From positions 18,967-82,966 of the forward strand of contig JANWIO010000166.1 in assembly GCA_025449835.1 (NCBI GenBank): a DNA stretch of 64,000 nucleotides, written 5' to 3'. The translations under genes were made by a program, and so were the position numbers. The notes beneath the pieces are model-generated. The model was not told where the DNA came from. It worked only from the letters and a program-made list of their open reading frames with translations, and did not search any database. Position 1 is the first letter of the stretch. Every line of letters starts with the position of its first letter. Positions 3,981 to 34,117 of the stretch are shown here, piece after piece. This DNA comes from Vampirovibrionales bacterium. Lineage in GTDB: Bacteria > Cyanobacteriota > Vampirovibrionia > Vampirovibrionales > JAGQHJ01.

Positions 3981-3983
3981 TTA

Positions 3984-14218: not shown

Positions 14219-14492
14219 CGTCCTCTCCTTATTTAAAAGACAAAGAGCCCCAAACACGACTTCGAAAAGAGATTAAGCAAAAAAGTCTGGATTGCTTTTT
14301 ACAAAGACGAATGCTCCTCTTCGTATCCGGCAAACCCTTATTACCCTCTGACAAATAACCCAAATAGATTTGCCTATGCACACTGTAGCATAAATGAACC
14401 CGATGAGGGAAGGGGCGACCCTCTGCACCATCTGGAGGAGTTTTACTGAATTTGCTTAAAGATTTCCCAAAGGATCCCGATATCCCCCTTAA

Positions 14493-14600: not shown

Positions 14601-14620
14601 CTATTTGCAGTTGCAAATAG
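14601..14620. promoter_or_regulatory. Inverted repeat CTATTTGCA-gt-TGCAAATAG, 40 bp upstream of the flagellin-1 start, overlapping a TTGGCAC sigma54-like half site
   Basis: Two 9-bp arms read directly from the sequence. Confidence 0.5.
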
Positions 14621-14659
14621 TACACGGAAGTGCTTTAGCGAGTTAAGGAGAACACGCAA

Positions 14660-15529
14660 GTGCCGATAGTTGTAAATACCAATATTGCATCTTTAATTGC
14701 ACAACAAAATTTATCAGTGAATACCAATAACGTTAATGGTTCACTGGAAAAATTATCCTCCGGCTATAAAATCAATCATGCCTCTGACGATCCAGCAGGA
14801 TTAAGCATCTCAGAAACACTTAATAGCCAGATTTCCGGGATCCAAACAGCTTTGCAAAACGCCCAAGAGGGAAACAGCATTTTGCAAGTTGCAGAAGGAA
14901 CTTTAAGTGTTATCGGTGATAACCTCCAACGGATTCGAGAGCTAACCGTTGAAGCTGCTAACGATACCAACAGTAGCACTCAGCGGGCAGCCCTTGCCAG
15001 TGAAATTAAGGCTCGCTTAAATGACAACCAACGCATGGTTCAAGCGGCACAATTTAATGGCATTAATCTGCTAACGGGATCAGCCGTCAGTGCTCGCCTT
15101 CAAATTGGACCCGATGCAAGCATTGCCGACAATACCATTAACATTGCCAGTGTCCTCGCCACGGCCACAGCAACAGCCATTGGTATTCTGGGAGCTGCCA
15201 CTTCCACAAAATGGGGAACTATCGGCAGCATTAACATTACCAATGGTAGCGTTGCCAGAAGCTTCTTAGGTGAGATAGATAAAGCTATTCAAGCCATCTC
15301 TTCAAGACGCACATTGATTGGTGCTTACCAAAACCAGTTAAGCAGCGCCATCTCCAATTTACAGTTGGGTTCACAGAACCTGACCTCCTCAGAATCCAAT
15401 ATCCGAGATGTGGATGTTGCTGCAGAAAGCGCTAAATTAACCCAATCTCAAATCTTACAACAGGCATCCGTTAGTATCCTGACACAGGCCAATCAAACCC
15501 CCTCAATGGTTCTTAAACTACTACAGTAA
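14660..15529 (+). CDS. fliC: Flagellin (copy 1 of 6, 289 aa, GTG start), the most divergent paralog
   Basis: Conserved flagellin D0/D1 termini (MPIVVNTNIASL... and ...LQQASVSILTQANQTP..LKLLQ). AAGGAG SD 9 nt upstream. Confidence 0.9.
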   Translation: MPIVVNTNIASLIAQQNLSVNTNNVNGSLEKLSSGYKINHASDDPAGLSISETLNSQISGIQTALQNAQEGNSILQVAEGTLSVIGDNLQRIRELTVEAANDTNSSTQRAALASEIKARLNDNQRMVQAAQFNGINLLTGSAVSARLQIGPDASIADNTINIASVLATATATAIGILGAATSTKWGTIGSINITNGSVARSFLGEIDKAIQAISSRRTLIGAYQNQLSSAISNLQLGSQNLTSSESNIRDVDVAAESAKLTQSQILQQASVSILTQANQTPSMVLKLLQ

Positions 15530-15634
15530 CCCTTACATAACCATAAGGAAAGCCCCATGAATACAACCCCCTAAGTTATACCCGCTCCCTCCCATGAACC
15601 TGGTCCATGCCCCAAATCATCACTGAACCAGACT

Positions 15635-16075
15635 CATGTGAGGACCTCCAAAGTTTTCACATGACCCCAGTATCTGCCCACATTAAACCTCAACATTAAC
15701 CCTTCGTGGATGGATACCCAACTCAATAACACCTGTAAAACGCTTCTGTGCATTAGCGTGGCGACCATCAAATTAAAAATAAAGATGCTGTCGACACCAG
15801 CTTCATGACTCAGATACCACTTTACAGGCTCAAAGAACCTCTTTCATGACTGAAAAGGATGAAAGCCTGGGCGCTAAAACGCTCCCGGGATGGGGTTCCC
15901 TACAATAAAATACCGAAACCCTTATATGTGCCTGATTCAGGGTGCCTTGGGCATCATTTTTTGAATCAGCCCCATGTGAGGATTCTTCGGACCTCTCACA
16001 TGACCCGATGTAAAACCGAGTTCGTGCCACTTGGCATGGATGTTTAAACCCAAACCGTTTGAACCGGCTTTACAT
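15635..16075 (+). repeat. Structured intergenic region with two copies of a CATGTGAGGA...CACATGACCC hairpin motif and further inverted repeats
   Basis: Copy A 15635-15667 and copy B 15973-16006 share 10-nt flanks that form 7-8 bp stems. Adjacent inverted repeats CTGATTCA/TGAATCAG (15933-15970) and GATGTAAA/TTTACATC (16007-16075). Confidence 0.5.
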
Positions 16076-16271
16076 CAAATTCATCAAGAATAAACCCCAT
16101 GTCTTATTTGGCATGAATGGATTAGAAATAAAGTTTTGTCTCTATTTCTACCCAGATCAAGCCTTTATAAGGCATTTTGAAAGAACCAACCTAACTCATA
16201 ATACACAACACGTTTGGAAAAACGCCACTTGACAAGGATGGAAAGTGAGAAAAAGCAAAAGGAGTTGAACT

Positions 16272-17114
16272 ATGCCACTCGTTATTAATACAAACGTAAA
16301 TTCATTAAATGCCCAACGGCTCTTGTCACAAAACACGATGAATCTGTCTAAAGATTTAGAGCAATTGGCCTCTGGTTATCGGATTAACCATGCCAGCGAT
16401 GATGCCGCAGGATTACAGATTTCTGAAAATTTTACTGCCCAAATCCGAGGCACTGAACAAGCCATTAACAATGCACAAGATGGCCTTAACCTCTTGTCTG
16501 TTGCAGAAGGTACCTTGAGCGTTGTGGCAAACAACCTGCAACGGATCCGGGAGCTCGCTGTGGAAGCTGCCAACGATGTGAACGGTTCAACCCAAAGATC
16601 TGCTATTAAGCAAGAAATTGATGCCCGAATCGCCGATATCAACCGAATGACCAAAGCAACACAATTTAACGGTGTCAATGTTCTTCAAAAGATCCCTAAT
16701 GTCAGCCTTAGACTACAGGTGGGTGCCAATGGTGTTGCATCACAAGACACCATCAATATCGCTTCTGCACTGGGAAGTGCAACCGCTACGGGACTTGGCC
16801 TTACAGCCACAGCCAATATGATTTCATCTAACAGTAATGCTCGGGCATTTTTGGCCAATGTAGATAGTGCTATGAATAACCTATCCAGCAGAAGAGCGGT
16901 AATCGGTTCATTCCAAAACCGATTACAAAGCGCTATTGATAACTTACAAATTGAAGATCAAAACTTCCAAGCTTCTGAATCTCAAATTAGAGACGTGAAT
17001 GTGGCCAAAGTTACGGCCGATCTTTCTAAAAACCAGATTTTACAACAAGCCTCTGTCAGCATCTTGGCGCAAGCAAATCAATTGCCGGCTCTGGCACTTA
17101 AATTAATCGGGTAA
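16272..17114 (+). CDS. fliC: Flagellin (copy 2 of 6, 280 aa)
   Basis: Flagellin N- and C-terminal helices. About 93% aa identity to copy 3 with many synonymous nucleotide differences. Confidence 0.9.
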   Translation: MPLVINTNVNSLNAQRLLSQNTMNLSKDLEQLASGYRINHASDDAAGLQISENFTAQIRGTEQAINNAQDGLNLLSVAEGTLSVVANNLQRIRELAVEAANDVNGSTQRSAIKQEIDARIADINRMTKATQFNGVNVLQKIPNVSLRLQVGANGVASQDTINIASALGSATATGLGLTATANMISSNSNARAFLANVDSAMNNLSSRRAVIGSFQNRLQSAIDNLQIEDQNFQASESQIRDVNVAKVTADLSKNQILQQASVSILAQANQLPALALKLIG

Positions 17115-17137
17115 GCCTGTTGTTTACCCATTTTTTA
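17109..17137 (+). terminator. Probable intrinsic terminator of flagellin 2
   Basis: GGGTAA-gcctgttgt-TTACCC followed by ATTTTTT; overlaps the stop codon. Confidence 0.55.
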
Positions 17138-17284
17138 TACCCAATCACTTACATAACTTAGAAAGGAGAAACAGATAAGACCTAAAATCACCTCATTTAC
17201 ATTACAGTACGTTACTTGTGTTTAACAAAAATACCTCATTATTAACAAGGATGGAAATAATAAGAAAGCAAAAGGAGTTGTACT

Positions 17285-18127
17285 ATGCCACTCGTTATTA
17301 ATACCAATGTCAATTCATTAAACGCTCAGCGACTCTTGTCGCAAAACACCATGAATCTCTCCAAAGACCTAGAGCAATTAGCCTCTGGTTATCGTATTAA
17401 CCATGCCGGTGATGACGCCGCAGGTCTCCAGATTTCTGAAAATTTTACTGCCCAAATCAAAGGGACAGAGCAAGCCATTAACAACGCACAGGATGGCCTT
17501 AACCTCTTGTCTGTTGCTGAAGGCACCCTAAGTGTTGTTCAGGATAACCTCCAGCGGATCCGCGAGCTAACTGTACAAGCGGCTAACGATGTTAACGGCT
17601 CCTCTCAAAGAACCGCTATTAAGCAAGAAATTGATGCCCGAATCGCCGACATCAACCGAATGACCAAAGCCACACAGTTTAACGGTGTCAATATTCTTAA
17701 AAGCATTGCAAATGTGAGTTTTCGCCTGCAAGTTGGTGCCAATGGTGTTGCATCCCAGGATACCATCAACATTGCATCAGCCTTGGGTAGTGCAACAGCC
17801 ACGGGGCTTGGATTAAAGGCAACGACCAATATGATTTCATCCAACAGCAATGCCCGTGCTTTTTTAGCCAATGTGGATAGTGCCATGAATAACCTATCCA
17901 GCAGAAGAGCGGTTATCGGTTCATTCCAAAACCGACTGCAAAGTGCCGTGAGTAACTTACAAATTGCAGATCAAAACTTCCAGGCCTCTGAATCTCAGAT
18001 CAGAGACGTTAATGTGGCCAAAGTTACTGCCGATCTCTCTAAAAACCAGATTCTGCAACAAGCTTCTGTCAGTATCTTGGCACAAGCAAACCAATTGCCG
18101 GCTTTGGCACTCAAACTTATCGGCTAA
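17285..18127 (+). CDS. fliC: Flagellin (copy 3 of 6, 280 aa)
   Basis: Flagellin termini. Leader shares the AAGGATGGAAA...AAGGAG motif with copy 2. Confidence 0.9.
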   Translation: MPLVINTNVNSLNAQRLLSQNTMNLSKDLEQLASGYRINHAGDDAAGLQISENFTAQIKGTEQAINNAQDGLNLLSVAEGTLSVVQDNLQRIRELTVQAANDVNGSSQRTAIKQEIDARIADINRMTKATQFNGVNILKSIANVSFRLQVGANGVASQDTINIASALGSATATGLGLKATTNMISSNSNARAFLANVDSAMNNLSSRRAVIGSFQNRLQSAVSNLQIADQNFQASESQIRDVNVAKVTADLSKNQILQQASVSILAQANQLPALALKLIG

Positions 18128-18317
18128 TTATCGAGCTCATTTGGCTTAAAACGCCTGTCGATAAATTTATTCTCACCTCATCAATGAGAAAAAAACAACA
18201 AAGGAGAATCTCCCTAATGACTTAAAACAATAATCCATCTGATTGAAACCTCTCACGTGTGGTGCAATCAGCCACTTACTTAAATTTGAATCAGGAAATA
18301 ACAGTAGGAGAAAAACT

Positions 18318-19157
18318 ATGCCACTGGTTATTAATACGAATACTAACTCATTAAACGCACAGCGGCTCTTGTCACAAAACACCATGAATCTCTCCAAAGA
18401 CTTAGAGCAGTTGGCCTCCGGTTATCGAATCAATCACGCATCGGACGACGCGGCAGGGCTACAAATCTCCCAGAATTTGCAGTCTCAATACCGTGGTATT
18501 GAGCAGGCCGTTCGAAACTCACAAGATGGACTTAACCTCTTGTCTGTTGCTGAAGGCACCTTGAGTGTTGTTCAAGATAACCTCCAGCGGATACGAGAAC
18601 TCGCTGTACAAGCAGCCAACGATGTTAACGGTACATCTCAAAGAACCGCTATTAAACAAGAGATAGATGCTCGAATTGCTGACATTAATCGAATGACCAA
18701 AGCCACGCAATTTAACGGTGTTAATATCCTTCAAAGCATCAAAGGCAGCTTCAATCTTGAAGTGGGTGCCAATGGTGCAGCATCCACAAATACCATTAAC
18801 ATTGCTTCAGCACTAGGTAGTGCAACAGCCACAGGGCTTGGACTAAAGGCAACCACCAATATGATTGCCGCCAACAGTAATGCTAGAGCCTTTTTAGGAA
18901 ATGTTGATTCAGCCATTGCAAATGTGTCAACAAGACGTGCAACCATTGGTTCATTCCAAAACCGGCTGCAAAGTGCTATTGCAAACTTACAAATTGCAGA
19001 TCAAAACTTCCAAGCTTCTGCGTCTCAAATTAGAGATGTGAATGTGGCTGCAGTCACTGCGGATCTGTCTCGAAATCAGATTCTGCAGCAGGCTTCCGTC
19101 AGCATTCTGTCTCAAGCAAATCAACTACCGGCCTTAGCACTCAAACTTATCGGATAA
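18318..19157 (+). CDS. fliC: Flagellin (copy 4 of 6, 279 aa); start corrected to ATG 18318
   Basis: MPLVINTN start preceded by a TAGGAG SD. The extra 25 codons of track ORF 18243 lack an RBS and break the paralog alignment. Confidence 0.9.
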   Translation: MPLVINTNTNSLNAQRLLSQNTMNLSKDLEQLASGYRINHASDDAAGLQISQNLQSQYRGIEQAVRNSQDGLNLLSVAEGTLSVVQDNLQRIRELAVQAANDVNGTSQRTAIKQEIDARIADINRMTKATQFNGVNILQSIKGSFNLEVGANGAASTNTINIASALGSATATGLGLKATTNMIAANSNARAFLGNVDSAIANVSTRRATIGSFQNRLQSAIANLQIADQNFQASASQIRDVNVAAVTADLSRNQILQQASVSILSQANQLPALALKLIG

Positions 19158-19315
19158 AAATATACACAAACAATCTTTAATAACAAAATAACCTGAAAGG
19201 AGGCTGATTATCCCGGAAAAATAGAACTCTTAGATTATCTAAATCCACACTTTACAAAACACAAACACTTTTTTTTGGAAGGAAAAGTGAAAAAACAACA
19301 TAAAGGAGTTAAATT

Positions 19316-20155
19316 ATGCCACTTGTTATTAATACAAACGTAAACTCGTTAAATGCACAGCGGCTCTTGTCACAAAACACCATGAATCTCTCCAAAGACT
19401 TAGAGCAGTTGGCCTCCGGTTATCGAATCAACCACGCATCTGACGACGCAGCCGGGCTACAAATCTCCCAGAATCTGCAGTCTCAATACCGTGGTGTCGA
19501 GCAGGCCGTTCGAAACTCACAAGACGGGTTAAACCTCTTGTCTGTTGCTGAAGGTACCCTGAGTGTCGTTCAAGATAACCTCCAGCGGATCAGAGAGCTT
19601 GCTGTACAGGCGGCCAACGATGTGAACGGTACATCTCAAAGAACTGCTATTAAGCAAGAGATGGATGCCCGGATTGCTGACATCAACCGAATGACCAAAG
19701 CAACGCAATTTAACGGTGTTAATATCCTTCAAAGCATCAAAGGAAGCTTTAACATTCAAGTTGGTGCCAATGGTGCAGCATCCACAAACTCCATTAACAT
19801 TGCGTCTGCACTGGGTAGCGCAACAGCCACAGGCCTTGGCTTAAAGGCAACCGCAAATATGATTGCCGCCAACAGTAATGCCAGATCCTTTTTATCCAAT
19901 ATCGATACAGCCATTGCAAACGTCTCAACAAGACGTGCAACCATTGGTTCGTTTCAAAACCGGCTACAAAGTGCTATTGCAAACCTACAAATTGCTGACC
20001 AAAACTACCAAGCTTCTGCATCTCAAATTCGAGATGTGAACGTGGCTTCAGTCACTGCGGATCTGTCTCGAAACCAGATTCTGCAGCAGGCTTCCGTCAG
20101 CATTCTGTCTCAAGCAAATCAACTACCGGCCTTAGCACTCAAACTCATTGGTTAA
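19316..20155 (+). CDS. fliC: Flagellin (copy 5 of 6, 279 aa)
   Basis: Near-identical to copy 4, including a ~78-nt identical tract near the 5' end. Confidence 0.9.
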   Translation: MPLVINTNVNSLNAQRLLSQNTMNLSKDLEQLASGYRINHASDDAAGLQISQNLQSQYRGVEQAVRNSQDGLNLLSVAEGTLSVVQDNLQRIRELAVQAANDVNGTSQRTAIKQEMDARIADINRMTKATQFNGVNILQSIKGSFNIQVGANGAASTNSINIASALGSATATGLGLKATANMIAANSNARSFLSNIDTAIANVSTRRATIGSFQNRLQSAIANLQIADQNYQASASQIRDVNVASVTADLSRNQILQQASVSILSQANQLPALALKLIG

Positions 20156-20180
20156 TCATCTATAACCAGTGCTTAAGCCT

Positions 20181-20212
20181 GCAGGAGACCCTTTTGGGGT
20201 CTCCTGTTTTTT
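20181..20212 (+). terminator. Strong rho-independent terminator after flagellin 5
   Basis: CAGGAGACCC-tttt-GGGGTCTCCTG followed by TTTTTT. Confidence 0.85.
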
Positions 20213-20501
20213 CACGCATTTCCATCTTCCTTCTTTACAACCCTTTGTTTTTAAAATTTAAACATAGATTGTAACAGATTGTTTCAATTTCCACTGAATG
20301 ATTTATGTTTCCGATGACCCTGTCGAAATCACATCAGGGACACCTCAAAAATGTTCCCACCCCAAGGGCACATCCCTGTAAAAGCACCTACCATAGAATT
20401 ATATGATGCAGCTTTAGGCTAACTCGGCTGGGTTAGAATGGCTTTTGCAGTGCGTTTCCTTAGGGTTCATGGATGAAATAATATTGTAAGGAGACAATAC
20501 T

Positions 20502-21341
20502 ATGTCACTAGTCGTGAATACAAACATTTCTTCTTTGAACGCTCAAAGAAACCTTGCTAATAACACAATGAGCCTTAACCGATCGTTAGAGCGGTTATCC
20601 TCCGGTTTACAGATTAACCATGCTTCTGATAACGCTGCAGGGTTACAAATTTCTCAAAATTTGCAAGCCCAAGTTAATGGTGTCAACCAAGCAGTTTCCA
20701 ATGCACAGGATGGCAACAATCTTCTGTCTGTTGCTGAGGGTACCTTGAGTGTTGTTCAAGATAACCTCCAACGGATTCGGGAATTGACTGTGCAAGCCGC
20801 CAACGATGTAAACGGTACATCTCAAAGAACTGCTATTAAGCAAGAGATCGATTCCCGGATTGCTGACATCAACCGAATGACCAAAGCGACCCAATTTAAT
20901 GGTATCAATATCCTTCAAAGCATCAAAGGAAGCTTTAACATTCAAGTTGGTGCCAATGGTGCAGCATCCACAAACTCCATTAACATTGCTTCAGCACTGG
21001 GTAGCGCAACAGCCACGGGGCTTGGGTTAAAAGCAACCACCAATATGGTTGCTGCAAATAGTAATGCTAGGGCCTTTTTGGCCAATGTGGATACGGCCAT
21101 TTCAGCTGTCTCAACCCGAAGAGCAACGATCGGTTCTTATCAAAACCGGTTACAAAGTGCTATCAGTAACTTACAGATTACGTCTCAAAATTTCGCTGCT
21201 TCTGAATCTCAAATCAGAGACGTGAATGTCGCTTCAGAAACGGCAAACTTAACCCGTTCTCAAATTCTGCAGCAAGCTTCTGTAAGCATCTTGGCACAAG
21301 CAAACCAATCATCAGCTCTGGCACTCAAACTCATCGGTTAG
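20502..21341 (+). CDS. fliC: Flagellin (copy 6 of 6, 279 aa), mosaic: divergent N-terminus, central block identical to copy 5
   Basis: MSLVVNTNISSLNAQR... N-terminus. A ~63-nt block (20927-20989) is identical to 19741-19803 of copy 5. Confidence 0.9.
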   Translation: MSLVVNTNISSLNAQRNLANNTMSLNRSLERLSSGLQINHASDNAAGLQISQNLQAQVNGVNQAVSNAQDGNNLLSVAEGTLSVVQDNLQRIRELTVQAANDVNGTSQRTAIKQEIDSRIADINRMTKATQFNGINILQSIKGSFNIQVGANGAASTNSINIASALGSATATGLGLKATTNMVAANSNARAFLANVDTAISAVSTRRATIGSYQNRLQSAISNLQITSQNFAASESQIRDVNVASETANLTRSQILQQASVSILAQANQSSALALKLIG

Positions 21342-22697: not shown

Positions 22698-22711
22698 GTC
22701 TTTGATAATGC

Positions 22712-23536
22712 TTACTCTTTCACACTGCCTTGCAGAATCCCCTGAATAAACTGGCGCTGCCCCATTAAAAAGACCAACACGATGGGCACAATGGAAATCG
22801 TTGAAGCCGCCATGAGCATGCTCCAATCCGTAATATCCCGATAACTACTTTTTAATGCGGCAATTCCCACGGGTAAGGTTCTTAATGTATCGGATTGGGT
22901 AATAATTAAGGGCCAGAGAAAGCTGTTCCAGCTACTAATAAACACAAAAATACCTAAGGCTACCAAGGCCGGCTTTGCTAAGGGAAGCGCAACGTAGATA
23001 AAAATCTGAAACGGGTTACACCCATCCATACGGGCTGCTTCTTCCAACTCTTTAGGCAGGCCGTTAAACCATTGCCGCAGCAAGAAAACCCCAAAAGCCG
23101 CAAATAGTCCCGGAACAATTAAGCCTGGATAGGTATCCACCCAATGAAAGGTCTTCATCACAAAAAACAACGGCACAATATTCACTTGGGGCGGAATCAT
23201 CATGGTGATCAGAAACACCATGAAAATCAGGTTTTTTTTCGGAAACTCCAATCGAGAAAAGCCATAGGCCGCCATGGCAGAGAAAAGCACTTGCCCCACG
23301 GTAGTACAGATAGAAACGACAACACTATTGAAAAAATAACGGGCCATAGGAACCTGTTGAAACACCTTCAGATAGTTCTCCCAATGAACAGGATGAGGCC
23401 AAAAATCCGGCGGGAATTGAAAGACTTGCTCCGTACTCATTAACGAGGTGGAAATCATCACCCAAAAAGGCCCCACCATGGCAAGGGAACCCAAAATCAG
23501 TATCGATAGCCAGACAAACTTAGGATTCAGCTTCAT
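22712..23536 (-). CDS. ABC sugar transporter permease (MalG/UgpE-like, CUT1 family)
   Basis: Six TM helices. EAA-like loop (EEAARMDGCNPFQIFIYVALPLAKP). Confidence 0.8.
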   Translation of the reverse strand: MKLNPKFVWLSILILGSLAMVGPFWVMISTSLMSTEQVFQFPPDFWPHPVHWENYLKVFQQVPMARYFFNSVVVSICTTVGQVLFSAMAAYGFSRLEFPKKNLIFMVFLITMMIPPQVNIVPLFFVMKTFHWVDTYPGLIVPGLFAAFGVFLLRQWFNGLPKELEEAARMDGCNPFQIFIYVALPLAKPALVALGIFVFISSWNSFLWPLIITQSDTLRTLPVGIAALKSSYRDITDWSMLMAASTISIVPIVLVFLMGQRQFIQGILQGSVKE

Positions 23537-24428
23537 GAAGCACCCACCGTTTTCTGAGCCACCACTGAATTAACGTAATGATAAGAATAATGACAAATAA
23601 AATATAGGCAATGGCCGAAGCTGGCCCCACTTTGTAGAATTCAAAAGCATTTTTGAACAACCAGTACACCAACACCTGGGTACTGTTTTGAGGACCGCCT
23701 TGGGTCAAAAGATAAACCGAATCAAACGCCTGAAACGCATTAATGAGCGAAACCGTAATAACAAAAAACAGGGTAGGGCTTAACATGGGCAATGTAATCC
23801 GGGTAAATCGCTGCCAAGCCCCCGCCCCATCCAGTGCCGCTGATTCGTATAAATGAAGCGGAACACCTTGGAGACCTGCCAGTAAAATCACCATGTTATA
23901 GCCCATGTCTTTCCACACCCGAAGCATAATAATGCCCAGCATGGCCCAGTGCGGATCGTATAGCCAGGCAATGGGCTTTTGACCCACCAGTTTGAGCCCC
24001 CAGTTCAACCACCCATAGCTCGGGTCATACATCCATCCCCACACCAATGCCACACTGACCATAGGCGTAATCACTGGTAAGAAAAAAATGGTTCGGAAAA
24101 GACCGATTCCTCGAATCGACTTGTTCACCAAAAGGGCCGCTCCCAAAGCCAATACCACTTCTAAAGAAACCGTTGCTACCACAAACACCAGGGAATTTTG
24201 AAGGGTTTTCCAGAACAAGGCATCCTGAAAAACAGTGATATAGTTTTCAAGCCCCACATAATGCGGCGACCCCAAGAGATTCCAATACGAAAAACTAAGC
24301 CCCAATGACATTAAAACCGGGATATAGGTAAAAAGCAGCAGTCCTAAAAAGCACGGCAGAATAAAGACCATCGGCCATCCCCACGTTTTCCAGAACGAAT
24401 TGGGCCTTGCCCCTGCGGGATGACTCAT
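23520..24428 (-). CDS. ABC sugar transporter permease (MalF/UgpA-like)
   Basis: Multi-TM permease with EAA loop (ESAALDGAGAWQRFTRITLP). Overlaps both neighbouring genes. Confidence 0.8.
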   Translation of the reverse strand: MSHPAGARPNSFWKTWGWPMVFILPCFLGLLLFTYIPVLMSLGLSFSYWNLLGSPHYVGLENYITVFQDALFWKTLQNSLVFVVATVSLEVVLALGAALLVNKSIRGIGLFRTIFFLPVITPMVSVALVWGWMYDPSYGWLNWGLKLVGQKPIAWLYDPHWAMLGIIMLRVWKDMGYNMVILLAGLQGVPLHLYESAALDGAGAWQRFTRITLPMLSPTLFFVITVSLINAFQAFDSVYLLTQGGPQNSTQVLVYWLFKNAFEFYKVGPASAIAYILFVIILIITLIQWWLRKRWVLHEAES

Positions 24429-25741
24429 TGTAGCAACTTCTCAATCTTCGGTGACACAGATTCAATGGCCTGCTTTGCCGTAGTGGTCCCTTCCCACACC
24501 GGTTCTAAAGCAAGATCCAGTTCTTCTGAGATTTCATCCCATCGCACAGGAGTATGAGAAGGCTGACCCTGGGCAATGACACTGATAAAATAACGGCCAT
24601 GAGCCGGAGGATTTTTTAAAAACCCCGCAGACTGAGCAACATCAATTCGAGCTGGCACAATGAGCCCACTTTGAGAAAAAATCTGTTGCGCATGGTGACT
24701 GGATAAAAACTGGACCAATTCCCAACTTTCCTGAGGGTGTTGGGTTACTTTTGATATGGCATAGCCCGACGCATCCACCCCCACAACAGATCCGGCATTA
24801 CCTTGAGGAAACGGAACCACGTCCCAGTGAAACTTCGCCTGCTTTCGCAAGATAGGAACACTCCAGCGCCCACTCACCATCATCGCAAGCTTTCCCTGTA
24901 AAAAAAGCTGACTCATGGTGGCACTCCCCACTTCTTCTAAACGCGGAGCCACATGCCATCGGTTTCTTAAATCCCCATAAAACTGAAGGGCTTGAACGGC
25001 TTTGGGTTGATTTAATTGAAATTGGGTTAAGCCAGGATTAAACAGATGTCCACCAGTACTCCACACAAAGGGTAGCCAGAACAAAGGCGGCTTAGCATAA
25101 AAAGAAATCCCGAATTGATCTTGAACACCATCGCCATTGGTATCTCGTGTCAATTTTTGTGCCATGACCAGCATCTCTTGTAATGTCCAGTTGGGTTTTG
25201 GAGGCAGTAAACCCGCCTGTTTAAAAAGATCGGCATTGTAATACACCACCAAGTCAGAGACATCCCGTGGAATGGCATATAAATGCTCTTTCCAACTTAA
25301 AGCTTTCAGGGCCGGTTCAAAAAATGTTTTTTGGTTTAAAGGGCTTTGAGGCTTACCTAAGAAGCTCTCCAAAGGCAAAAAAATGTTATTATCGGCATAA
25401 ACGGGTAAACTAAGGCTATTCATAAACACCACATCTGGTGTTAACCCACCTGCAATTAGAATATGCAGCTTCTGAAAATAGTTTTCAGGGATATGAAGCA
25501 CTTGAATGTGAATATGAGGATGCTTCGCTTCAAAAGTGTTTAAAAGGGAGTTTAAAACGACCATTTCTTCAGCGCTCCCCCAGGTTGAAAATCGCAGGGT
25601 CACCACATCATTTTTGGTCTGGGTCCCACAACTGGCAAAAATAACCGCTCCCAACATCAACAATAAAGCCATCGCAACCGAAAGGCACTTTGATGAAAAA
25701 AAGTTCAAAATTTTACTTAATAAATGTTGGGAATTGCGCAA
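24425..25741 (-). CDS. Extracellular solute-binding lipoprotein of a carbohydrate ABC transporter
   Basis: Signal peptide with lipobox (IFASCG). SBP family 1 architecture. Operon with two permeases; no ATPase gene in the locus. Confidence 0.8.
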   Translation of the reverse strand: MRNSQHLLSKILNFFSSKCLSVAMALLLMLGAVIFASCGTQTKNDVVTLRFSTWGSAEEMVVLNSLLNTFEAKHPHIHIQVLHIPENYFQKLHILIAGGLTPDVVFMNSLSLPVYADNNIFLPLESFLGKPQSPLNQKTFFEPALKALSWKEHLYAIPRDVSDLVVYYNADLFKQAGLLPPKPNWTLQEMLVMAQKLTRDTNGDGVQDQFGISFYAKPPLFWLPFVWSTGGHLFNPGLTQFQLNQPKAVQALQFYGDLRNRWHVAPRLEEVGSATMSQLFLQGKLAMMVSGRWSVPILRKQAKFHWDVVPFPQGNAGSVVGVDASGYAISKVTQHPQESWELVQFLSSHHAQQIFSQSGLIVPARIDVAQSAGFLKNPPAHGRYFISVIAQGQPSHTPVRWDEISEELDLALEPVWEGTTTAKQAIESVSPKIEKLLQ

Positions 25742-26127
25742 TTTTCAATCGGACCCTTTTTTATTTGTAGAGGAACCACCCTTTATTGTACGGTCGAATG
25801 GAAGTATTTATCCAAAACTGCCCTTATGAAACATCACATTAACCTTATTTTAAACCAGTTTCCGCCACTCAAACGTAAACCACTCCTGAGATGGTTCAGT
25901 GAATCTGAGGTTGGTCGGAAATCTTGTCATCAAGCATTTTTAGCCTGCTTGCAAGAAGTTTCGGCGTCTCAACCTGAATTGGATCGGCGAAGTAAAATTG
26001 CCTTTAGCCTGGTCCATGAATTTGGCCTGCCCTTTTCAAAACAAACCCTTTATAAACCATTGATTGACGCCGTCGAAGAACGTTTAATCCAAAAGTCTCA
26101 TATTTCCTAGCCGCAAAAACAGGCAAC

Positions 26128-27549
26128 TCACGAAGGTTCATTAACAGGTTGTGCCGAGGTTTTATCAACCCAACCCTCAATCTGGGTTTGGCGGGCACGG
26201 GCAATGGCTAAATCGCCGGACTCAACATCTTCTGTAATAACAGAGCCAGCGGCAATACAAGAACGCTGATGCAGTGTGACTGGCGCAATCAAAACGCTGT
26301 TGCACCCCACTTTAACCCCGTTTTCAATCACAGTCCGATGTTTTGCATCGCGAATCGGATCATAGTTGGCCACAATCGTTCCAGCCCCCATATTCACATC
26401 ATCGCCCACATCCGCATCCCCTAAATAACAAAGGTGTGCCGCATTGGAACGATCACCAATTTGCGTTTCTTTCACTTCTACAAAATTCCCCACCCGAACC
26501 GTTTCTCCGAGGATGGCGTTATCTCGAAGATGGGCAAAAGGACCAACATAACTATTTTTGCCAATAGCAACCCGACGCTCAAGATTGGAATAAACAACCC
26601 GACAGAAGTCACTTACTTCAATTTCTCCCCGCATGGTGGTGTACGGTCCAATTTCACAATGGAAGCCAATGACAACATCCCCTTCCAGGTAACATCCCGG
26701 ATATAAAACCGAATCTGCCCCAACCTGAATTTCAGGCGCCAATGTCATGCTTTGAGGATTAACAATGCTTACACCTTGATCCATTAAGCGCTTGGCTGTC
26801 CATCGGGATAAAATGCCACACGCTTCTGACAATTGGGATCGGCTATTGATGCCTAAAATTTCATCCGGGTCAGGCCATACAACCGGAATCACCTGTTTTT
26901 TGTCTTGAGCCAACAAACCTAACACATCGGTTAAATAAAACTCTCCTTGGGCATTATTTTGAGTAAGTTTTGCAAAATACCCTGAAAAAACAGGCCAGTT
27001 AACCGTATAAATTCCTGCATTAATCCATGGAATCTTTTTTTCTTCCAACGTGGCATCTTTTTCTTCCACAATACGCTGAAATTGATTCTCCTGATCTCGA
27101 ACTACCCGCCCATATCCTGTTGGGTCAGACATTGCCACTGTCACCATGGCCACCGCAGGCTGCTTTTGGTCATACAGTTTAAGCAATTCTTGATACCGTT
27201 CGGCCAAAACCAACGGCATATCCCCACAGGTAATTAACACGTCAGCTTGGGTTTCAGAAGGCAAAGCCTTTAAAACCTGCATCATGGCATGACCTGTTCC
27301 CAGTTGAGGCTCTTGAACGACAAAGTGAATAGAAAAAGGTAAATTCAAGTGGGAAATGACTTCCTCAACCTGCTGAGCCTGGTGACCAATCACCAAAATC
27401 ACCTGATCTAATTTTAAAGGGACAAAACTTTCTAACACCCGTTGAATCATGCTTTTGCCTAAAACCGGATGAAGCACCTTGGGCAAATCACTCTTAAGCC
27501 GGGTCCCTTTGCCAGCCGCCAATACCACACCAATCCGAAGCTTTGCCAT
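26128..27549 (-). CDS. glmU: Bifunctional UDP-GlcNAc pyrophosphorylase / GlcN-1-P acetyltransferase
   Basis: N-terminal LAAGKGTRLKSDLPKVLH nucleotidyltransferase signature. C-terminal left-handed beta-helix hexapeptide repeats. Confidence 0.9.
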   Translation of the reverse strand: MAKLRIGVVLAAGKGTRLKSDLPKVLHPVLGKSMIQRVLESFVPLKLDQVILVIGHQAQQVEEVISHLNLPFSIHFVVQEPQLGTGHAMMQVLKALPSETQADVLITCGDMPLVLAERYQELLKLYDQKQPAVAMVTVAMSDPTGYGRVVRDQENQFQRIVEEKDATLEEKKIPWINAGIYTVNWPVFSGYFAKLTQNNAQGEFYLTDVLGLLAQDKKQVIPVVWPDPDEILGINSRSQLSEACGILSRWTAKRLMDQGVSIVNPQSMTLAPEIQVGADSVLYPGCYLEGDVVIGFHCEIGPYTTMRGEIEVSDFCRVVYSNLERRVAIGKNSYVGPFAHLRDNAILGETVRVGNFVEVKETQIGDRSNAAHLCYLGDADVGDDVNMGAGTIVANYDPIRDAKHRTVIENGVKVGCNSVLIAPVTLHQRSCIAAGSVITEDVESGDLAIARARQTQIEGWVDKTSAQPVNEPS

Positions 27550-27558
27550 GAACCCTTC

Positions 27559-28404
27559 CTAAACCAAAATAGATTCTGGCTCTTGGACCTCTTGTTGGTT
27601 ATGTGGGGACTCCCCAGGCCGATGATGCTTGCTGCAAATGCCTCGCTTGGAGGACAGTACAAAATCCAAGAGTTCTTCTAGATAGTGATCCATTTCCAAA
27701 TTATCTCGAATGGCCTGAATCGCGTGGGTTTGATTTAACCCCGAAAACCAAAGATAGAAAAAGGCTTTTTTCAGCCGTTGCCGCTCTTCAGAACTAAGCC
27801 CTCGGCGCCGAAGCCCCACAGTGTTAACGCCTCGAATGGTTGTAGGCTTTCCATCACTCATTGAAAATGGTGGCAAATCTTGACTACATCCACTTGCACC
27901 CCCTAAAAATGCCATTCTGCCCACCACTACATGCTGATGGATGAGACTCCCACCACCGATAAAGGCATAATCCCCTAACTTAACATGGCCTGCAACCTGG
28001 ACTGCATTGGCCATAATCACATGATCTCCGGCTTGACAATTGTGTGCTAAATGACTGTATGCCATGAGAAAGCAGTTATCCCCGATAACGGTTTCATTGC
28101 CTTCACCGGTTGCCCGATTTAAGGTGACATATTCTCGAATCAATGCATTATCACCCACCCGAACCCGAGTTAGCTCTCCTTGATAAGCTAAATCCTGAGG
28201 AGCTCCTCCTAAAACAGCACCTGCTGCAATTCGGCAATTTTTCCCTAAAATCGTTCTGTCTTCCAGCACCACATGGGGGCCTAAAATTGTCTGTTCCCCA
28301 ATGTGGACATTGGCACCAATAACACTATAAGGGCCAACTTCAACGTCATCTTCCAGAATTGCCGACGGATCAATAATTGCCGTGGGATGAATTCGTTGTG
28401 TCAT
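27559..28404 (-). CDS. lpxA: UDP-N-acetylglucosamine O-acyltransferase
   Basis: Hexapeptide-repeat beta-helix (IHPTAIIDPSAILEDDVEVGPYSVIG...) with the LpxA C-terminal helical domain. Adjacent to fabZ. Confidence 0.9.
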   Translation of the reverse strand: MTQRIHPTAIIDPSAILEDDVEVGPYSVIGANVHIGEQTILGPHVVLEDRTILGKNCRIAAGAVLGGAPQDLAYQGELTRVRVGDNALIREYVTLNRATGEGNETVIGDNCFLMAYSHLAHNCQAGDHVIMANAVQVAGHVKLGDYAFIGGGSLIHQHVVVGRMAFLGGASGCSQDLPPFSMSDGKPTTIRGVNTVGLRRRGLSSEERQRLKKAFFYLWFSGLNQTHAIQAIRDNLEMDHYLEELLDFVLSSKRGICSKHHRPGESPHNQQEVQEPESILV

Positions 28405-28890
28405 CTATACCGTTCCCCCATTTTTAGGTTGAAGGAAAAAGAGAATTTCACCATCCGCAACCCGTTCACCATCAACGGTTGCTTTCCCATAGGCCTTGCC
28501 CAAGCTGCCTTTCAATTTAAGTAATTCTACATGTAGCTCCAATTTATCACCCGGAATAACCTGGCGGCGAAAACGAACCTCATTAATTCCTGCAAATAGG
28601 GCTATTTTACCCTCTCCCTCAGGCAGATAGCTTACTAAAATACTCCCCAGTTGTGCCAGGGATTCAATAATCAAAACGCCAGGCATTAAGGGCATATTCG
28701 GGAAGTGACCTTGAAAAAAAGCCTCGTTCATCGAAACATTTTTATACCCTGTAATGTATTTTCCTTGTTCCATCTCAGTAACACGATCCACCAATAAAAA
28801 AGGATATCGATGGGGAAGGGTTTCCATAATGGTGTGAATATCGAATCCGCTGGTTAAGGATTGTTCTGTCTTTTCAAGCATTTCAATCAA
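28405..28890 (-). CDS. fabZ: 3-hydroxyacyl-ACP dehydratase
   Basis: Hot-dog fold motifs LPHRYPFLLVDRV and HFPNMPLMPGVLIIESLAQ. Confidence 0.9.
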   Translation of the reverse strand: MIEMLEKTEQSLTSGFDIHTIMETLPHRYPFLLVDRVTEMEQGKYITGYKNVSMNEAFFQGHFPNMPLMPGVLIIESLAQLGSILVSYLPEGEGKIALFAGINEVRFRRQVIPGDKLELHVELLKLKGSLGKAYGKATVDGERVADGEILFFLQPKNGGTV

Positions 28891-28998
28891 AACTCATCCA
28901 CCTTGCTTTAATCTCAATAGAGTGTTCGTATTATACGTAAAAAATAAAGTAAAAACGATAGTTGTTTATTGGAGCCATCGCTTTCCCGTTACACCTTG

Positions 28999-29730
28999 TT
29001 ACAATGGCCGTTTTGCAGGAATCCCTGGCTGCCGAGGATACTTTGCAGGCGTAGATTTAACTTTTTGAATCACGGCCAGTGCATGGTTTTTCAATTCCGG
29101 CAGCGTAATAGGTTCAATCTTTGAGACCTTCCCTCCCATCTCGTGAATGGCATGCTGTGCCAAAGGAATTTCTGTTTCCAGTGAAGTATGGGTTTTCATG
29201 GCATAAAAAGTGCCTCCCGTTTTCAAAAAAGGCAAACACAGTTCCACCAAAACATTTAACGAAGCCACGGCTCTGGCTGTTACTACATCACATTGTTCAC
29301 GATATTTGGGTTCATGAGCCAGGGTTTCACTTCGTTCTGCTAACACCGAAACACCTGCAAGCTCTAAGGCTTCAGCAGCCTGAGTAATAAACCGGGCTTT
29401 TTTTTGAGCCGACTCTACCGCGATGATACGGGCCGGAGGAAAAACAATAGCCAAGGGTAATGCTGGAAAGCCAGCACCGCTTCCAATATCCATCAACATA
29501 AAGGATGATGGTAACGCTTTTAAAAAAGGCACCAGGGTTAAAGAATCCAGGAGATGTAGCGTTCCAAAATCCGCTAACGTGGTAATGCGGGTTAAATTAA
29601 TAGTTTTATTTTCCTGAATAAGTAGATTATACAGGGTTTGAAATTGCTGCATCTGATGCGCATCAAGAGATATGTCTAAAAAAGTGGATGCAGATTCCTG
29701 GAGGACCTGCCAATAACTTGTGAGTTCCAT
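28999..29730 (-). CDS. rsmG: 16S rRNA (guanine527-N7)-methyltransferase
   Basis: GidB-family SAM-MTase motifs (LMDIGSGAGFPALPLAI). Confidence 0.85.
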   Translation of the reverse strand: MELTSYWQVLQESASTFLDISLDAHQMQQFQTLYNLLIQENKTINLTRITTLADFGTLHLLDSLTLVPFLKALPSSFMLMDIGSGAGFPALPLAIVFPPARIIAVESAQKKARFITQAAEALELAGVSVLAERSETLAHEPKYREQCDVVTARAVASLNVLVELCLPFLKTGGTFYAMKTHTSLETEIPLAQHAIHEMGGKVSKIEPITLPELKNHALAVIQKVKSTPAKYPRQPGIPAKRPL

Positions 29731-29823
29731 AGTACAATCATTGTATCGGAATCCAACATTTACAGAAATGAATTATCCCGCCGATACATTGGATACCCAT
29801 TCATCCCCAACCAACAGAAGAAG

Positions 29824-32643
29824 ATGGCTTCAAACAATCTGTTTTTTATCCAACCCCACATTGTAGAGCGGTTAATCCGCCATGAATTTGTTGCCAAACG
29901 GCAGCAGAGTAAAGCTTATCGCATGCATGATAGACGCAATACCCTTTCACCCCTTAATGTTACCCGTCGGGCGATTCGCTATGAACCGTTGGTTTTCACC
30001 AATCGCCACGAAGAACTGGTTGATTGTATACAAACGCTTAATAGCCCAGACACCAAATTGCTTCTCATTTCTGGACCGCCTGGACGTGGTAAAACCAGCT
30101 TTATCCGAGCCCTTTCTGAAATGATGGATGGCAGCAAGGCACAACTTCTTTGGTTCGATGTCTCTAAACATACCGATTTTGATGAGGTAGTCCGATTTTT
30201 GGTCGAATATCTCACCTACATCTGCCGAAGTTTAGAGGAAACTCCGAAAGATGTTCCCAAAGATTCGGATCCTATTGAAATATTGGAACAGCTGTTAAAT
30301 CAAACGGCCAATTTTCCCATTTTAATTGCCATTGATAACATCGAGCATCTCGTCACACCCGATCAAACGGTTCGTTCTAGAGAACTCAAAGAAGCCTTTA
30401 ACTTTTTACTCTCCTTTCCCAACGTCAAACTCATTCTCTCAGGCAAAACCCTACCCCTATCGGATATGAACCCGGCTGCCGAAGCCGTTTACCATTTACC
30501 CTTAGAGCCCTTCAACACGATACAAAGTGAGGCTTTGGTAAAACAGCTTTTTCACCATGACGCAACAAAATCTCAAAACATCACAGAACTGGTCCCTTTT
30601 TTTCACGGCGAACCCTACCTCCTCTTTTTGTTCGCCACGCTTTTTGAGCGTCATGCGAACACGCCTTTATGGTTTGAAACCCTTAGCCAAGCCCCTGATA
30701 ATCCAGAAAAAGTGTTGCTTTCCTTTCTGTACCCCCACCTTTCTGATATCGAGAAAAAGGTTTTAAGAATTTTAGCACTCATTCGCCATGGGGCAACCCC
30801 TTCTGGGCTTCAAGTAATTGTTCGCTACTGTAATCCCACCTTAAAAACCTTTGATTTTAAGCAAATAAACAAATCAATACTCCGGCTTCTCTTTAAAAAA
30901 GTATATCCCCCGCAAATGGTATTGGAAAAGTTAAGACACCGACCAGAAAACCATGGAGAGAATGATACCATTGAAGCGTATTATCAACTTTTTGAATTGG
31001 TGCAAGAAGATATCGTTCAAACGATCCCAGAAGAAGAACGGATTCAAACCCATGAACGTCTGCATCAGTTTTATCTCGCCGAAAAAAATAAGCATATTAT
31101 CGACCGAATTTACCAGACCCGCACCCTACATCTTGCCGCAGAGGCCCAATATCACTTTACCCACAGCAAACGGCGTAGATCCTCGCCAGTTTCTTCAGAG
31201 CCTTTTACCCTTGATTCCATTCATCCTCAGGCAAGTGATGGAATGAGTACACCTGAGCGCTACCTATACATGCAGCACACTGCCCCCCAGCATTTTAGTG
31301 AACTGTCTTCAGAAAAAAGTATTCCGTGGCCCAACTTGGAGACATCAGAAGAGGATGAAGTTTCAGGGGCATATGAAATCACCCAGTCCGTTGGCAGCAG
31401 CCACAAAAAAGGGAAATCGGATTCTGTATCCTCCACCGTCCCCATCTCCATCCAAATTGAGCCTTCTGCCACTTTAAACACCCCAACCGTAAGGCTTACC
31501 GATGAAGATTTAGAGAAATTGGCCCAATTGATTACACGAACAAGCCATCATACTTCATCATCTACCAATCCTTATATACAATCCCACCTAGAACTCCCTC
31601 TTGATACAAAGCCAGAAGCGGTTTTTGATATACCAGAAGCGGAAACGGAAATTTTATCGGATTTAGAAGAAGCGCCTTCCCTAGATCTCGAAGAGCAGGA
31701 AATTCAAAACCGGTTAAGTTACGCGATTACCCAACATGATCGCAAGAAAATTGCAGAAGAACTCCTTCAACTTGGCCGATATCGGATCCAAAAAGGGCTT
31801 TCTGAAAATGGGGAAGCTTGCTTAATCAAAGCCTTAGAGTATGCCGAAGACATCTCTGATACCATCCTACAAGCGGCTATTTATAGTACTTTAGGACATT
31901 CTTATCGAGAACATTTCCAGCACAACAAAGCCTTACGGCATTTAAGAGAGGTAGAACACCTTTATGAAAAGGGCAATAAAAGCGCAAAAGAGCAAGAAGT
32001 TTTGCCTCAGACCTATTGGGACATGGCTGAAATTTATTTTTACCGTAAAGAACTCGAAAAAGCACAATATTTTTATAAAAAAAGCTTGTCGTTTCAGACC
32101 ATTGATACCCCTTTTAAAGCAGAAGTGCTCTTTCGGTTAGCCTTAACATTGGATGATTCCGGAGAAATCGACGAAGCAACCCGTTATTATCGGCAAAGTT
32201 TTGAAGTTAGCTCAGCAATTCATGATAATTATACGTGCGCGGCAACATTGTATAACCTGGCCAGCCTTTATTTCGAACATGCTCAGTTTGAAGAAGCCAA
32301 GAAAACCCTACAAGAGTGTTTGGTTTATGATAAACAAAACGGAATTGAAAAAGACATTCTGCGATCCTTGATCCAACTTTCCAAGATTTGTGAAGCCCAA
32401 CACATACTCCCAGATGCAAAACAATACGCCACTGAGGCCTATGAATTTGCAAAAGGTGCTTCTAATAAAACCAATTTAGCGTCTGTTTGCTTGCACCTAG
32501 GGCATTTGGCCGAAACTGCTCAATCCTGGGAAGAAGCTGCTCGATATTATCAACAAGCTGAATCGGCAGCAAGTGAATTATCAGAAGAAAGCCGCCAACG
32601 GATCCGTCAAAAACAAGAAGCCTTAAAGGATTATCTCTCATGA
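29824..32643 (+). CDS. Large (939 aa) STAND-like P-loop NTPase with an acidic/Ser-rich linker and C-terminal TPR repeats
   Basis: Walker A LLLISGPPGRGKTSF near residue 85 and Walker B-like ILIAIDNIEHL. Residues ~430-640 are low-complexity and acidic. The C-terminal ~300 aa contain multiple TPR-like repeats. TGA stop overlaps the pyrE start. Confidence 0.6.
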   Translation: MASNNLFFIQPHIVERLIRHEFVAKRQQSKAYRMHDRRNTLSPLNVTRRAIRYEPLVFTNRHEELVDCIQTLNSPDTKLLLISGPPGRGKTSFIRALSEMMDGSKAQLLWFDVSKHTDFDEVVRFLVEYLTYICRSLEETPKDVPKDSDPIEILEQLLNQTANFPILIAIDNIEHLVTPDQTVRSRELKEAFNFLLSFPNVKLILSGKTLPLSDMNPAAEAVYHLPLEPFNTIQSEALVKQLFHHDATKSQNITELVPFFHGEPYLLFLFATLFERHANTPLWFETLSQAPDNPEKVLLSFLYPHLSDIEKKVLRILALIRHGATPSGLQVIVRYCNPTLKTFDFKQINKSILRLLFKKVYPPQMVLEKLRHRPENHGENDTIEAYYQLFELVQEDIVQTIPEEERIQTHERLHQFYLAEKNKHIIDRIYQTRTLHLAAEAQYHFTHSKRRRSSPVSSEPFTLDSIHPQASDGMSTPERYLYMQHTAPQHFSELSSEKSIPWPNLETSEEDEVSGAYEITQSVGSSHKKGKSDSVSSTVPISIQIEPSATLNTPTVRLTDEDLEKLAQLITRTSHHTSSSTNPYIQSHLELPLDTKPEAVFDIPEAETEILSDLEEAPSLDLEEQEIQNRLSYAITQHDRKKIAEELLQLGRYRIQKGLSENGEACLIKALEYAEDISDTILQAAIYSTLGHSYREHFQHNKALRHLREVEHLYEKGNKSAKEQEVLPQTYWDMAEIYFYRKELEKAQYFYKKSLSFQTIDTPFKAEVLFRLALTLDDSGEIDEATRYYRQSFEVSSAIHDNYTCAATLYNLASLYFEHAQFEEAKKTLQECLVYDKQNGIEKDILRSLIQLSKICEAQHILPDAKQYATEAYEFAKGASNKTNLASVCLHLGHLAETAQSWEEAARYYQQAESAASELSEESRQRIRQKQEALKDYLS

Positions 32644-33233: not shown

Positions 33234-33552
33234 AGAACTCATGGGCGTCTAAAACATCATCATACCCAATAGGCTCAAAGATAGATAAACGCTCAAGCTC
33301 ATCCGGCGTTAATTCGGGATCTTCGTACTGTTCATTGGAGCGAGATGTTAATTCAGATCCTTCTAAGCCCACCAAGGCGATCCCCATTTGGCGACTACAG
33401 TGTGTGCAATGAACATTCACGACATACACCCCTTTATCGTGGCGAATCAGCTCAATACCCTCAGGTTCCAAGTGCGAAGAACAAAAATTGCAACGCATTC
33501 TTGTAAAAAAGTTTTGTATAATACTAAAACCATCCATGAGTCTGATTTCCAC
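33142..33552 (-). CDS. Hypothetical zinc-ribbon protein (CxxC...CxxC) with an acidic C-terminus; convergent overlap of ~92 bp with the pyrE 3' end
   Basis: Two Cys pairs (CNFCSS, CTHCSRQ). ORF overlaps pyrE 33142-33233 on the opposite strand. Confidence 0.4.
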   Translation of the reverse strand: MEIRLMDGFSIIQNFFTRMRCNFCSSHLEPEGIELIRHDKGVYVVNVHCTHCSRQMGIALVGLEGSELTSRSNEQYEDPELTPDELERLSIFEPIGYDDVLDAHEFFNNLDENWQKYVPEEMRQLEIEPEPESELA

Positions 33553-34081: not shown

Positions 34082-34117
34082 CACTGAGTGTAGTGATGCC
34101 AGTTATCGAAATACGAT

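Follow-up and report, generated by a model that had tools for sequence, protein, structure and literature searches.

The leaders of the flagellin genes flaA of Campylobacter jejuni and flaB of Borrelia burgdorferi are controlled by CsrA, with FliW as the antagonist. In Bacillus subtilis, the leader of the flagellin gene hag contains two GGA stem-loops that are bound by CsrA, and this binding is antagonised by FliW (PMC13443453); the primary work on hag, CsrA, and FliW (Yakhnin 2007; Mukherjee 2011) is summarised in PMC13443453 and PMC4347634. The binding consensus of Escherichia coli CsrA, as obtained by systematic evolution of ligands by exponential enrichment (SELEX; Dubey 2005, as cited in PMC4347634), is RUACARGGAUGU, in which ACA and GGA are invariant and the GGA is favoured in hairpin loops (PMC4347634). 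Here, we compare these systems with the 5' leaders of six tandem flagellin open reading frames (ORFs) encoded on the plus strand of contig JANWIO010000166.1 from a Vampirovibrionales bacterium, at 14660-21341 of the window (i.e., the whole stretch of 64,000 nucleotides (nt) that was analysed, in which all positions are given). Each of the six predicted proteins has both the Flagellin_N and the Flagellin_C domain (Pfam). We consider it probable that each of these flagellin mRNAs carries a two-site operator of the CsrA family that acts on translation.

All six leaders contain a GGA within the Shine-Dalgarno (SD) sequence, located 11-13 nt ahead of the start codon, and a further GGA 13-28 nt upstream of it. 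The preliminary description had reported this pair of GGA motifs for copies 2-6 with a spacing of 13-27 nt, and every motif that it quoted was found in place at a spacing in agreement with the one measured here. It had overlooked copy 1, where the same layout is present. Copy 1 (14660-15529, with a GTG start) in fact has the strongest consensus match among the six leaders, GTACACGGAAGT at 14620-14631, and the 12-mer at the same position, GUACACGGAAGU, agrees with RUACARGGAUGU at 10 of the 12 bases. Its upstream GGA (14626-14628) belongs to the hairpin AGUAC-ACGGAA-GUGCU (14619-14634, plus strand, as are all the leader sites described here) and lies 21 nt from the SD GGA at 14647, within the SD sequence UAAGGAGA (14644-14651), 13 nt ahead of the GTG at 14660.

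The SD contexts of copies 2-6 are AAAGGAG, GTAGGAG, or TAAGGAG, and the distance from the first G of an upstream GGA to the first G of the SD GGA varies among them. Copy 2 (16272-17114, ATG at 16272) and copy 3 (17285-18127, ATG at 17285) share the element ACAAGGATGGAAA, which contains two GGAs (16236 and 16240 in copy 2, 17249 and 17253 in copy 3), located 25 and 21 nt respectively from the SD GGA in each leader. In copy 2 the element forms the hairpin CACUU-GACAAGGAUGGA-AAGUG (16226-16247), in which ACAAGGAUG fits the core of the CsrA consensus, and in copy 3 the hairpin AUUAUU-AACAAGGAUGGA-AAUAAU (17238-17261), with the same loop as in copy 2. Both copies have the SD sequence AAAGGAGU, at 16258-16265 with GGA at 16261 and at 17271-17278 with GGA at 17274, respectively. 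The same SD sequence is found in copy 5 (19316-20155, ATG at 19316) at 19302-19309, with GGA at 19305. Upstream of it is the hairpin CACUUUU...AAAAGUG (19266-19289) with UUGGAAGG on top, and the element TTGGAAGGAAAAG, a weak match to the extended consensus, has one GGA (19277) in the loop and another (19281) partly in the stem, at spacings of 28 and 24 nt respectively. In copy 4 (18318-19157, ATG at 18318), the upstream site AAUCAGGAAAU (18289-18299) has a weak consensus fit; its element TCAGGAAAT (GGA at 18294) is associated with a stem of 3-4 bp only, and lies 13 nt from the GGA at 18307 in the SD sequence GUAGGAGA (18304-18311). Lastly, copy 6 (20502-21341, ATG at 20502) has the element CATGGATGAAA with its GGA at 20471 in a mini-hairpin, UUCA-UGGA-UGAA (20466-20477), 19 nt from the GGA at 20490 in the SD sequence UAAGGAGA (20487-20494).

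Besides these pairs, a third GGA-containing element, RAAAGGAG(R), is present on the plus strand at 17161-17172, 18199-18210, and 19195-19206, approximately 100-120 nt 5' of copies 3, 4, and 5 respectively and 45-70 nt past the preceding stop codon; just downstream of the element of copy 4 is a mini-ORF of two codons (ATG ACT TAA). Similar AAGGAGG elements are found in the spacers of five related loci (L003, L004, L010, L012, and L015). These third elements could be extra CsrA sites, decoy SD sequences, or remnants of duplication.

In RNAfold predictions on the leader segment from -55 to +12, both Gs of one upstream GGA are unpaired with a probability of at least 0.89 in all six leaders (0.90, 0.93, and 0.99 for the G, G, and A of copy 1). 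For copies 1, 2, 3, and 5 the predicted structure has the upstream GGA in the loop of a hairpin; copy 6 can form a mini-hairpin of 4 bp, and copy 4 has a weak stem. Copies 2 and 3 have the loop ACAAGGAUGGA in common, and their arms differ yet remain complementary (CACUU/AAGUG and AUUAUU/AAUAAU respectively), so that the hairpin is kept by compensatory changes. Among flagellin leaders of related bacteria (described below), the upstream GGA has a mean predicted probability of being unpaired of 0.66, as compared to 0.50 with shuffled flanks (P = 4e-4), and is in a hairpin loop of the minimum free energy (MFE) structure in 39% of cases, as compared to 18% with shuffled flanks (P = 0.001). Inverted repeats flank a number of these related elements, e.g., CTACA-AGGA-TGTAG, GTAAA-CGGA-TTTAC, TTTTCA-CGGAT-TGAAAA, and TTTAAC-ATGGAA-GTTAAA.

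A separate feature was observed in copies 2 and 3 (16258-16283 and 17271-17296), where GGAGU of the SD sequence is predicted to pair with CCACUCG in codons 2-4. Such a helix, if formed, would sequester the SD sequence, and may either add to or compete with control by a protein.

Matches to RUACARGGAUGU comprise 10 of 12 bases in copy 1, 9 of 12 in copies 2 and 3 (U[G/A]ACAAGGAUGG), and 9 of 12 in copy 6 (GUUCAUGGAUGA), with the ACA of the consensus present in copies 1-3. In the whole window, RTACARGGATGT with three or fewer mismatches occurs 121 times, as compared to approximately 135 expected, so there is no overall enrichment. It is the position that is shared: in four of the flagellin leaders, a match is found at an equivalent place, for which we estimated a chance probability of approximately 1e-5, or approximately 2e-4 if copies 2 and 3 are taken as one. 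The top match of the window, TTACAGGGATGT (11 of 12), is at 20370-20381 on the minus strand, i.e., opposite to the flagellins, in the spacer between copies 5 and 6, and is probably a chance match.

The layout is conserved in related bacteria. The nearest flagellins, searched for in contigs of one genome per species, belong to metagenome-assembled genomes (MAGs) of Vampirovibrionia with 48-54% identity, including Vampirovibrionales, Gastranaerophilales, and 'Melainabacteria', as well as some MAGs mislabelled as Gammaproteobacteria. A scan of metagenomes for closer flagellins, which could be used to look for covariation in the leaders, yielded none above 54% identity. We compared 48 flagellin leaders, i.e., those in the window and in 23 Vampirovibrionia loci (L001-L023), to 98 control leaders with an SD sequence, taken from these loci as well. 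The SD GGA is present in 47 of the 48 flagellin leaders, and an upstream GGA (between -60 and -18) in 42, with a distance to the SD GGA that is in most cases 18-29 nt and peaks at about 20-21 nt; the recurring form of the element in the lineage is (A/C)A-N-GGA-(U/A)-G(U). A GGA between -42 and -26 is found in 71% of the flagellin leaders (including five of the six in the window) and in 13% of the controls (Fisher P 6e-12), and the motif A.GGAWG in 52% and 2% respectively (Fisher P 8e-13). Because the leaders include paralogues and closely related MAGs, these P values overstate the case, although the direction is still clear. In flagellin leaders of other lineages among the fetched loci, the corresponding frequencies are 9-11% and 0-8%. 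Further, a composite pattern consisting of A.GGAWG, 6-30 nt, an SD sequence with GGA, 4-11 nt, and ATG has 22 matches across 597 kb of sequence from the lineage, and 20 of the 22 matches are ahead of flagellin genes. In the remaining two cases the ORF that follows has only 46 or 14 codons, and no other real gene is preceded by this pattern. Judging from these sequences, the composite architecture appears essentially confined to flagellin genes.

In one of the related loci (L012, contig CAZFBA010000002.1), the element is located in intergenic spacers of 45-66 nt, right after the stop codon of the preceding flagellin gene, and thus likely represents a signal at the level of RNA rather than of a promoter. 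One Vampirovibrionia MAG (L012 and L001) has an extreme tandem array, a single region with 13 or more flagellin genes, several of which are only 45-66 nt apart.

The same leader layout is found where FliW and CsrA are encoded nearby. Genes for both proteins are within a few kb of flagellin in Acidimicrobiales (L031, L040, L046, L051, and L064), Lachnospiraceae (L074), and Bacillota (L072), the distance being 1-5 kb in L031, L040, L046, and L074. These loci, which serve as a positive control, share a hairpin-loop GGA approximately 20-35 nt ahead of a GGA-containing SD sequence. The related Lachnospiraceae loci L070 and L071 have the same layout, and examples from the whole set are GUUCAA-CGGA-UUGAAC and AUGUCGC-AAGGAA-GCGACAU.

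Based on these observations, we propose the following mechanism. The upstream site, with the consensus (A/C)A-N-GGA-(U/A)-G and usually located in or beside a short hairpin loop approximately 20-25 nt 5' of the SD sequence, would be the site of higher affinity, and the GGA within the SD sequence would be the second site. A single CsrA dimer could then span both sites, cover the SD sequence, and block binding of the 30S subunit, so that translation of flagellin would be kept low until the repressor is titrated away. An antagonist, a part that FliW plays in the model systems, where flagellin export sets it free, would lift the repression once flagellin can be exported. The spacing of 13-28 nt in the window, with its mode of about 20-21 nt in relatives, suits one CsrA dimer, which is reported (Mercante 2009) to tolerate sites approximately 10-63 nt apart with an optimum near 18. 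Thus, for the CsrA/FliW-type control put forward in the preliminary description, the RNA side is supported by two GGAs per leader, the consensus matches, the predicted access, the spacing, the conservation, and the specificity for flagellin, while CsrA as the ligand, repression of translation as the outcome, and an antagonist that couples it to flagellar assembly are what we infer from this arrangement.

On the protein side, neither csrA nor fliW was found in the window by tblastn, for which the queries came from B. subtilis and E. coli, or by hidden Markov models (HMMs), which were made from the csrA and fliW genes of the other fetched loci and run with filters off; this agrees with what had been noted for the window before. 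FliW was likewise absent from the 23 Vampirovibrionia loci (flagellin +/- 6 kb), and among 80 flagellin loci from metagenomes it was found solely in L120, which belongs to another lineage; in these loci, the FliW half of the earlier proposal thus finds no support. A search of the protein database with B. subtilis CsrA returned only Bacillaceae among the 120 closest matches, and is uninformative on Vampirovibrionia. At the level of the lineage, CsrA exists in the class, since a 'Carbon storage regulator, CsrA' (gene 2600256354) is annotated in Vampirovibrio chlorellavorus, where it appears in the list of genes predicted to be highly expressed, as does a sigma-28 factor (both in PMC4451040 Table S2). 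Full-text searches of the literature yielded no paper that links Melainabacteria or Vampirovibrio to CsrA or FliW in its main text.

Several observations weigh against CsrA control of these leaders. No csrA or fliW gene was found within 6-10 kb of flagellin in any locus of the Vampirovibrionia lineage, including the four loci syntenic with the window (L160-L163, see below), and the flagellar gene table for V. chlorellavorus does not list FliW (PMC4451040), although that table is not exhaustive, since flagellin is also omitted from it. Copies 4 and 5 retain the GGA core only, and the two GGAs of copy 4 are merely 13 nt apart. The support for hairpins in relatives is just moderate, with a stem of at least 5 bp around the GGA in 52% of the related leaders, as compared to 28% for all GGAs in the loci and 35% with shuffled flanks. 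In addition, the related leaders are not independent of each other, the search for promoters of copies 2-6 turned up neither a sigma-28 type nor a clear sigma-70 type, and the AGGA or AAGGA core of the upstream element is partly complementary to the anti-SD sequence, i.e., SD-like.

In a role independent of CsrA, the AGGA-type element upstream could boost flagellin output by enhancing translation, by serving as a standby site for ribosomes, or by stabilising the mRNA as a 5' hairpin. Flagellin is highly expressed, the leaders are rich in A (40%), and csrA is only presumed in this genome, all of which would fit such a role. Nevertheless, we regard it as unlikely, because the conserved flanks follow the CsrA consensus, with CA ahead of the base that precedes GGA and (U/A)G behind it, where an SD-like element would have GG, the element is present in just 2% of the other SD leaders of the same genomes as compared to 52% of the flagellin leaders, most flagellin leaders of other lineages lack it, and the layout is common to the lineages that encode FliW and CsrA beside flagellin.

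Alternatively, the element may be an operator for another trans-acting factor, either an RNA-binding protein or a base-pairing small RNA (sRNA), that has replaced CsrA in this lineage. The lineage is deep-branching, its flagellin arrays are located in variable, non-flagellar gene contexts, and csrA and fliW were not seen in the related loci among approximately 100 flagellin-centred loci. Against this, the leaders fit the CsrA consensus and its two-site geometry in a specific way, and CsrA is annotated in V. chlorellavorus. Moreover, no conserved neighbour gene able to encode an alternative regulator was found beside the related arrays, and a scan against Rfam returned no matching family. We therefore consider replacement quite improbable.

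The repeated GGAs might also be functionless, i.e., leftovers of gene duplication or chance occurrences in purine-rich leaders. The leaders of copies 2, 3, and 5 are indeed similar, with an identity over -45 to -1 of 0.84 for copies 2 and 3 and 0.76 for copies 2 and 5, and consensus matches of 9 out of 12 are common in the window, as noted above. All other pairs of leaders are at the background level of approximately 0.55-0.7. In particular, the coding sequences (CDSs) of copies 4 and 5 are 91% identical, yet their leaders are unalignable (0.64) and both keep two GGAs, and copy 1 has the best site even though its CDS is only 63-65% identical to the other copies. Because most of the leaders are unalignable, the motif was kept or regained independently, and on this sequence evidence recent duplication does not explain the shared GGA layout. 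The layout is retained in leaders that fall into four or more unrelated types (copy 1; copies 2, 3, and 5; copy 4; and copy 6), which, together with the strong enrichment over controls and over other lineages, the clustering at approximately 20-21 nt from the SD sequence, the composite matches that fall on flagellins, and the compensatory arm changes in copies 2 and 3, leads us to disfavour a functionless origin as highly improbable.

Equally remote is an element that acts in DNA, as part of a promoter or as an activator site: with no promoters identified for copies 2-6, its position 30-40 nt before the start codon would leave room for a promoter with a short leader, but it is unlike sigma-28 (TAAA-N15-GCCGATAA), sigma-70, or correctly spaced sigma-54 sites, it keeps a set distance from the SD sequence and not from any -10/-35 pair, it follows directly on the stop codon of the gene before it where spacers are 45-66 nt long, and it is strand-specific with hairpin potential.

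A sigma-28-like promoter, TAAA-N15-CCCGATAT, is located at 14457-14483 on the plus strand, 177 nt upstream of copy 1, and would, if used, place both sites of copy 1 inside a 5' untranslated region (UTR) of approximately 165 nt. A sigma-54 promoter was also considered 5' of copy 1 and rejected, since TGGCAC...TTGCA has a GG-to-GC spacing of 8 or 14 nt instead of 10. Terminators are predicted behind copies 2 and 5, with a possible further one behind copy 6, so that copies 3-5 may be co-transcribed, in which case their sites would still be in RNA.

Just two matches to the sigma-28-like pattern TAAA-N15-xCCGATAw are present in the 64 kb, the one ahead of copy 1 and another at 7097-7071 on the minus strand. 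Downstream of the latter is an operon on the minus strand whose products are a histidine kinase (6980-6003), a response regulator, an HDOD protein, and an HD-GYP response regulator (3980-2679), and which may be a sigma-28-dependent module for cyclic di-GMP (c-di-GMP) and motility signalling. Overall, genes related to c-di-GMP that share the window encode a TPR-GAF-HD-GYP protein, a GGDEF response regulator, an HDOD protein, and an HD-GYP response regulator, and are located at 37316-39961 (minus strand), 40052-41674 (plus strand), and 2679-5204 (minus strand).

The spacer between copies 1 and 2 (15530-16271) is unusually long (742 nt). It contains two near-identical hairpins, CATGTGAGGA...CACATGACCC, at approximately 15635-15668 and 15973-16006, and a terminator-like site at 15941-15962. 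GGAT occurs eight times on its plus strand, as compared to 2.7 in dinucleotide shuffles (P = 0.005), and not at all on its minus strand. We considered whether this spacer might encode a CsrB-like decoy sRNA, which appears unlikely because the GGAs are mostly in stems of the MFE structure and the region has no match in the other loci.

The genes that neighbour the array are not flagellar, and include those for UDP-glucose dehydrogenase, an ABC sugar transporter, GlmU, LpxA, FabZ, RsmG, MqnA, and TatC. The nearest named relative of GlmU is in a Vampirovibrionales MAG (58% identity), and the ABC permeases are common to two Melainabacteria flagellin loci. Tandem flagellin arrays are also present in many of the related Vampirovibrionia MAGs. 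Four loci (L160-L163, with GlmU of 67% identity) are syntenic with the window over 22700-37200, with the order TatC, MqnA, thioesterase, phosphoribosyltransferase (PRTase), STAND-TPR, RsmG, FabZ, LpxA, GlmU, and ABC transporter kept; beyond the permeases they contain patatin and PheST, or PHA genes, where the window has the flagellins. Given this synteny without the array, the six-gene array is either a lineage-specific insertion or was lost in these four loci.

If the leaders are indeed CsrA operators, the CsrA-flagellin checkpoint would extend to a non-photosynthetic sister lineage of Cyanobacteria in which flagellar regulation is unstudied, which would favour an ancestral origin of CsrA control of flagellin among flagellated bacteria. 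The leader architecture could also serve as a simple signature in sequence by which flagellin genes, and how they are regulated, can be annotated in MAGs. As the mechanism is textbook knowledge, a specialist would expect such a finding rather than be surprised by it; it is a known mechanism that is predicted here in a lineage without an earlier description. A more speculative extension, which we think unlikely as a whole, is that Vampirovibrionia run CsrA control of flagellin without FliW, and that graded sites set a fixed order of de-repression and thereby the mix of subunits in a multi-flagellin filament. Copies 1, 2, 3, and 6 may represent the strong sites in such a series, and copies 4 and 5 the weak or closely spaced ones, and a new antagonist may act in place of FliW, be it an sRNA, a different protein, or the mRNAs for flagellin.

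Compared to the described systems, the leaders in the window are similar to that of B. subtilis hag, with which they share a flagellin target, an upstream GGA (here in a predicted stem-loop) combined with an SD GGA, and the expected block of ribosome binding. The differences are that Bacillus has one hag gene, whereas six paralogous leaders carry the pair here; that fliW and csrA adjoin flagellin in Bacillus but not in the window, whose host is a diderm relative of Vampirovibrionia; and that the operator here is predicted from sequence. The loci of Acidimicrobiales and Lachnospiraceae described above likewise have a loop GGA, as (C)AAGGA(W)G or AACGGAU, 20-35 nt upstream of the SD sequence; they differ in encoding FliW and CsrA near flagellin, unlike the window or the 23 Vampirovibrionia loci. 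With respect to the E. coli SELEX consensus, near-ideal hairpins are found in relatives, e.g., CUACA-AGGA-UGUAG in L001, whereas in the lineage consensus the base ahead of GGA is free and the one behind it can be U or A. C. jejuni and B. burgdorferi resemble the present case in that the flagellin mRNA is the main CsrA target, with GGA stem-loops near the SD sequence, in diderm bacteria of which some have multiple flagellins. In those two species csrA and fliW are known and have been genetically tested, whereas in the Vampirovibrionales bacterium they are presumed.

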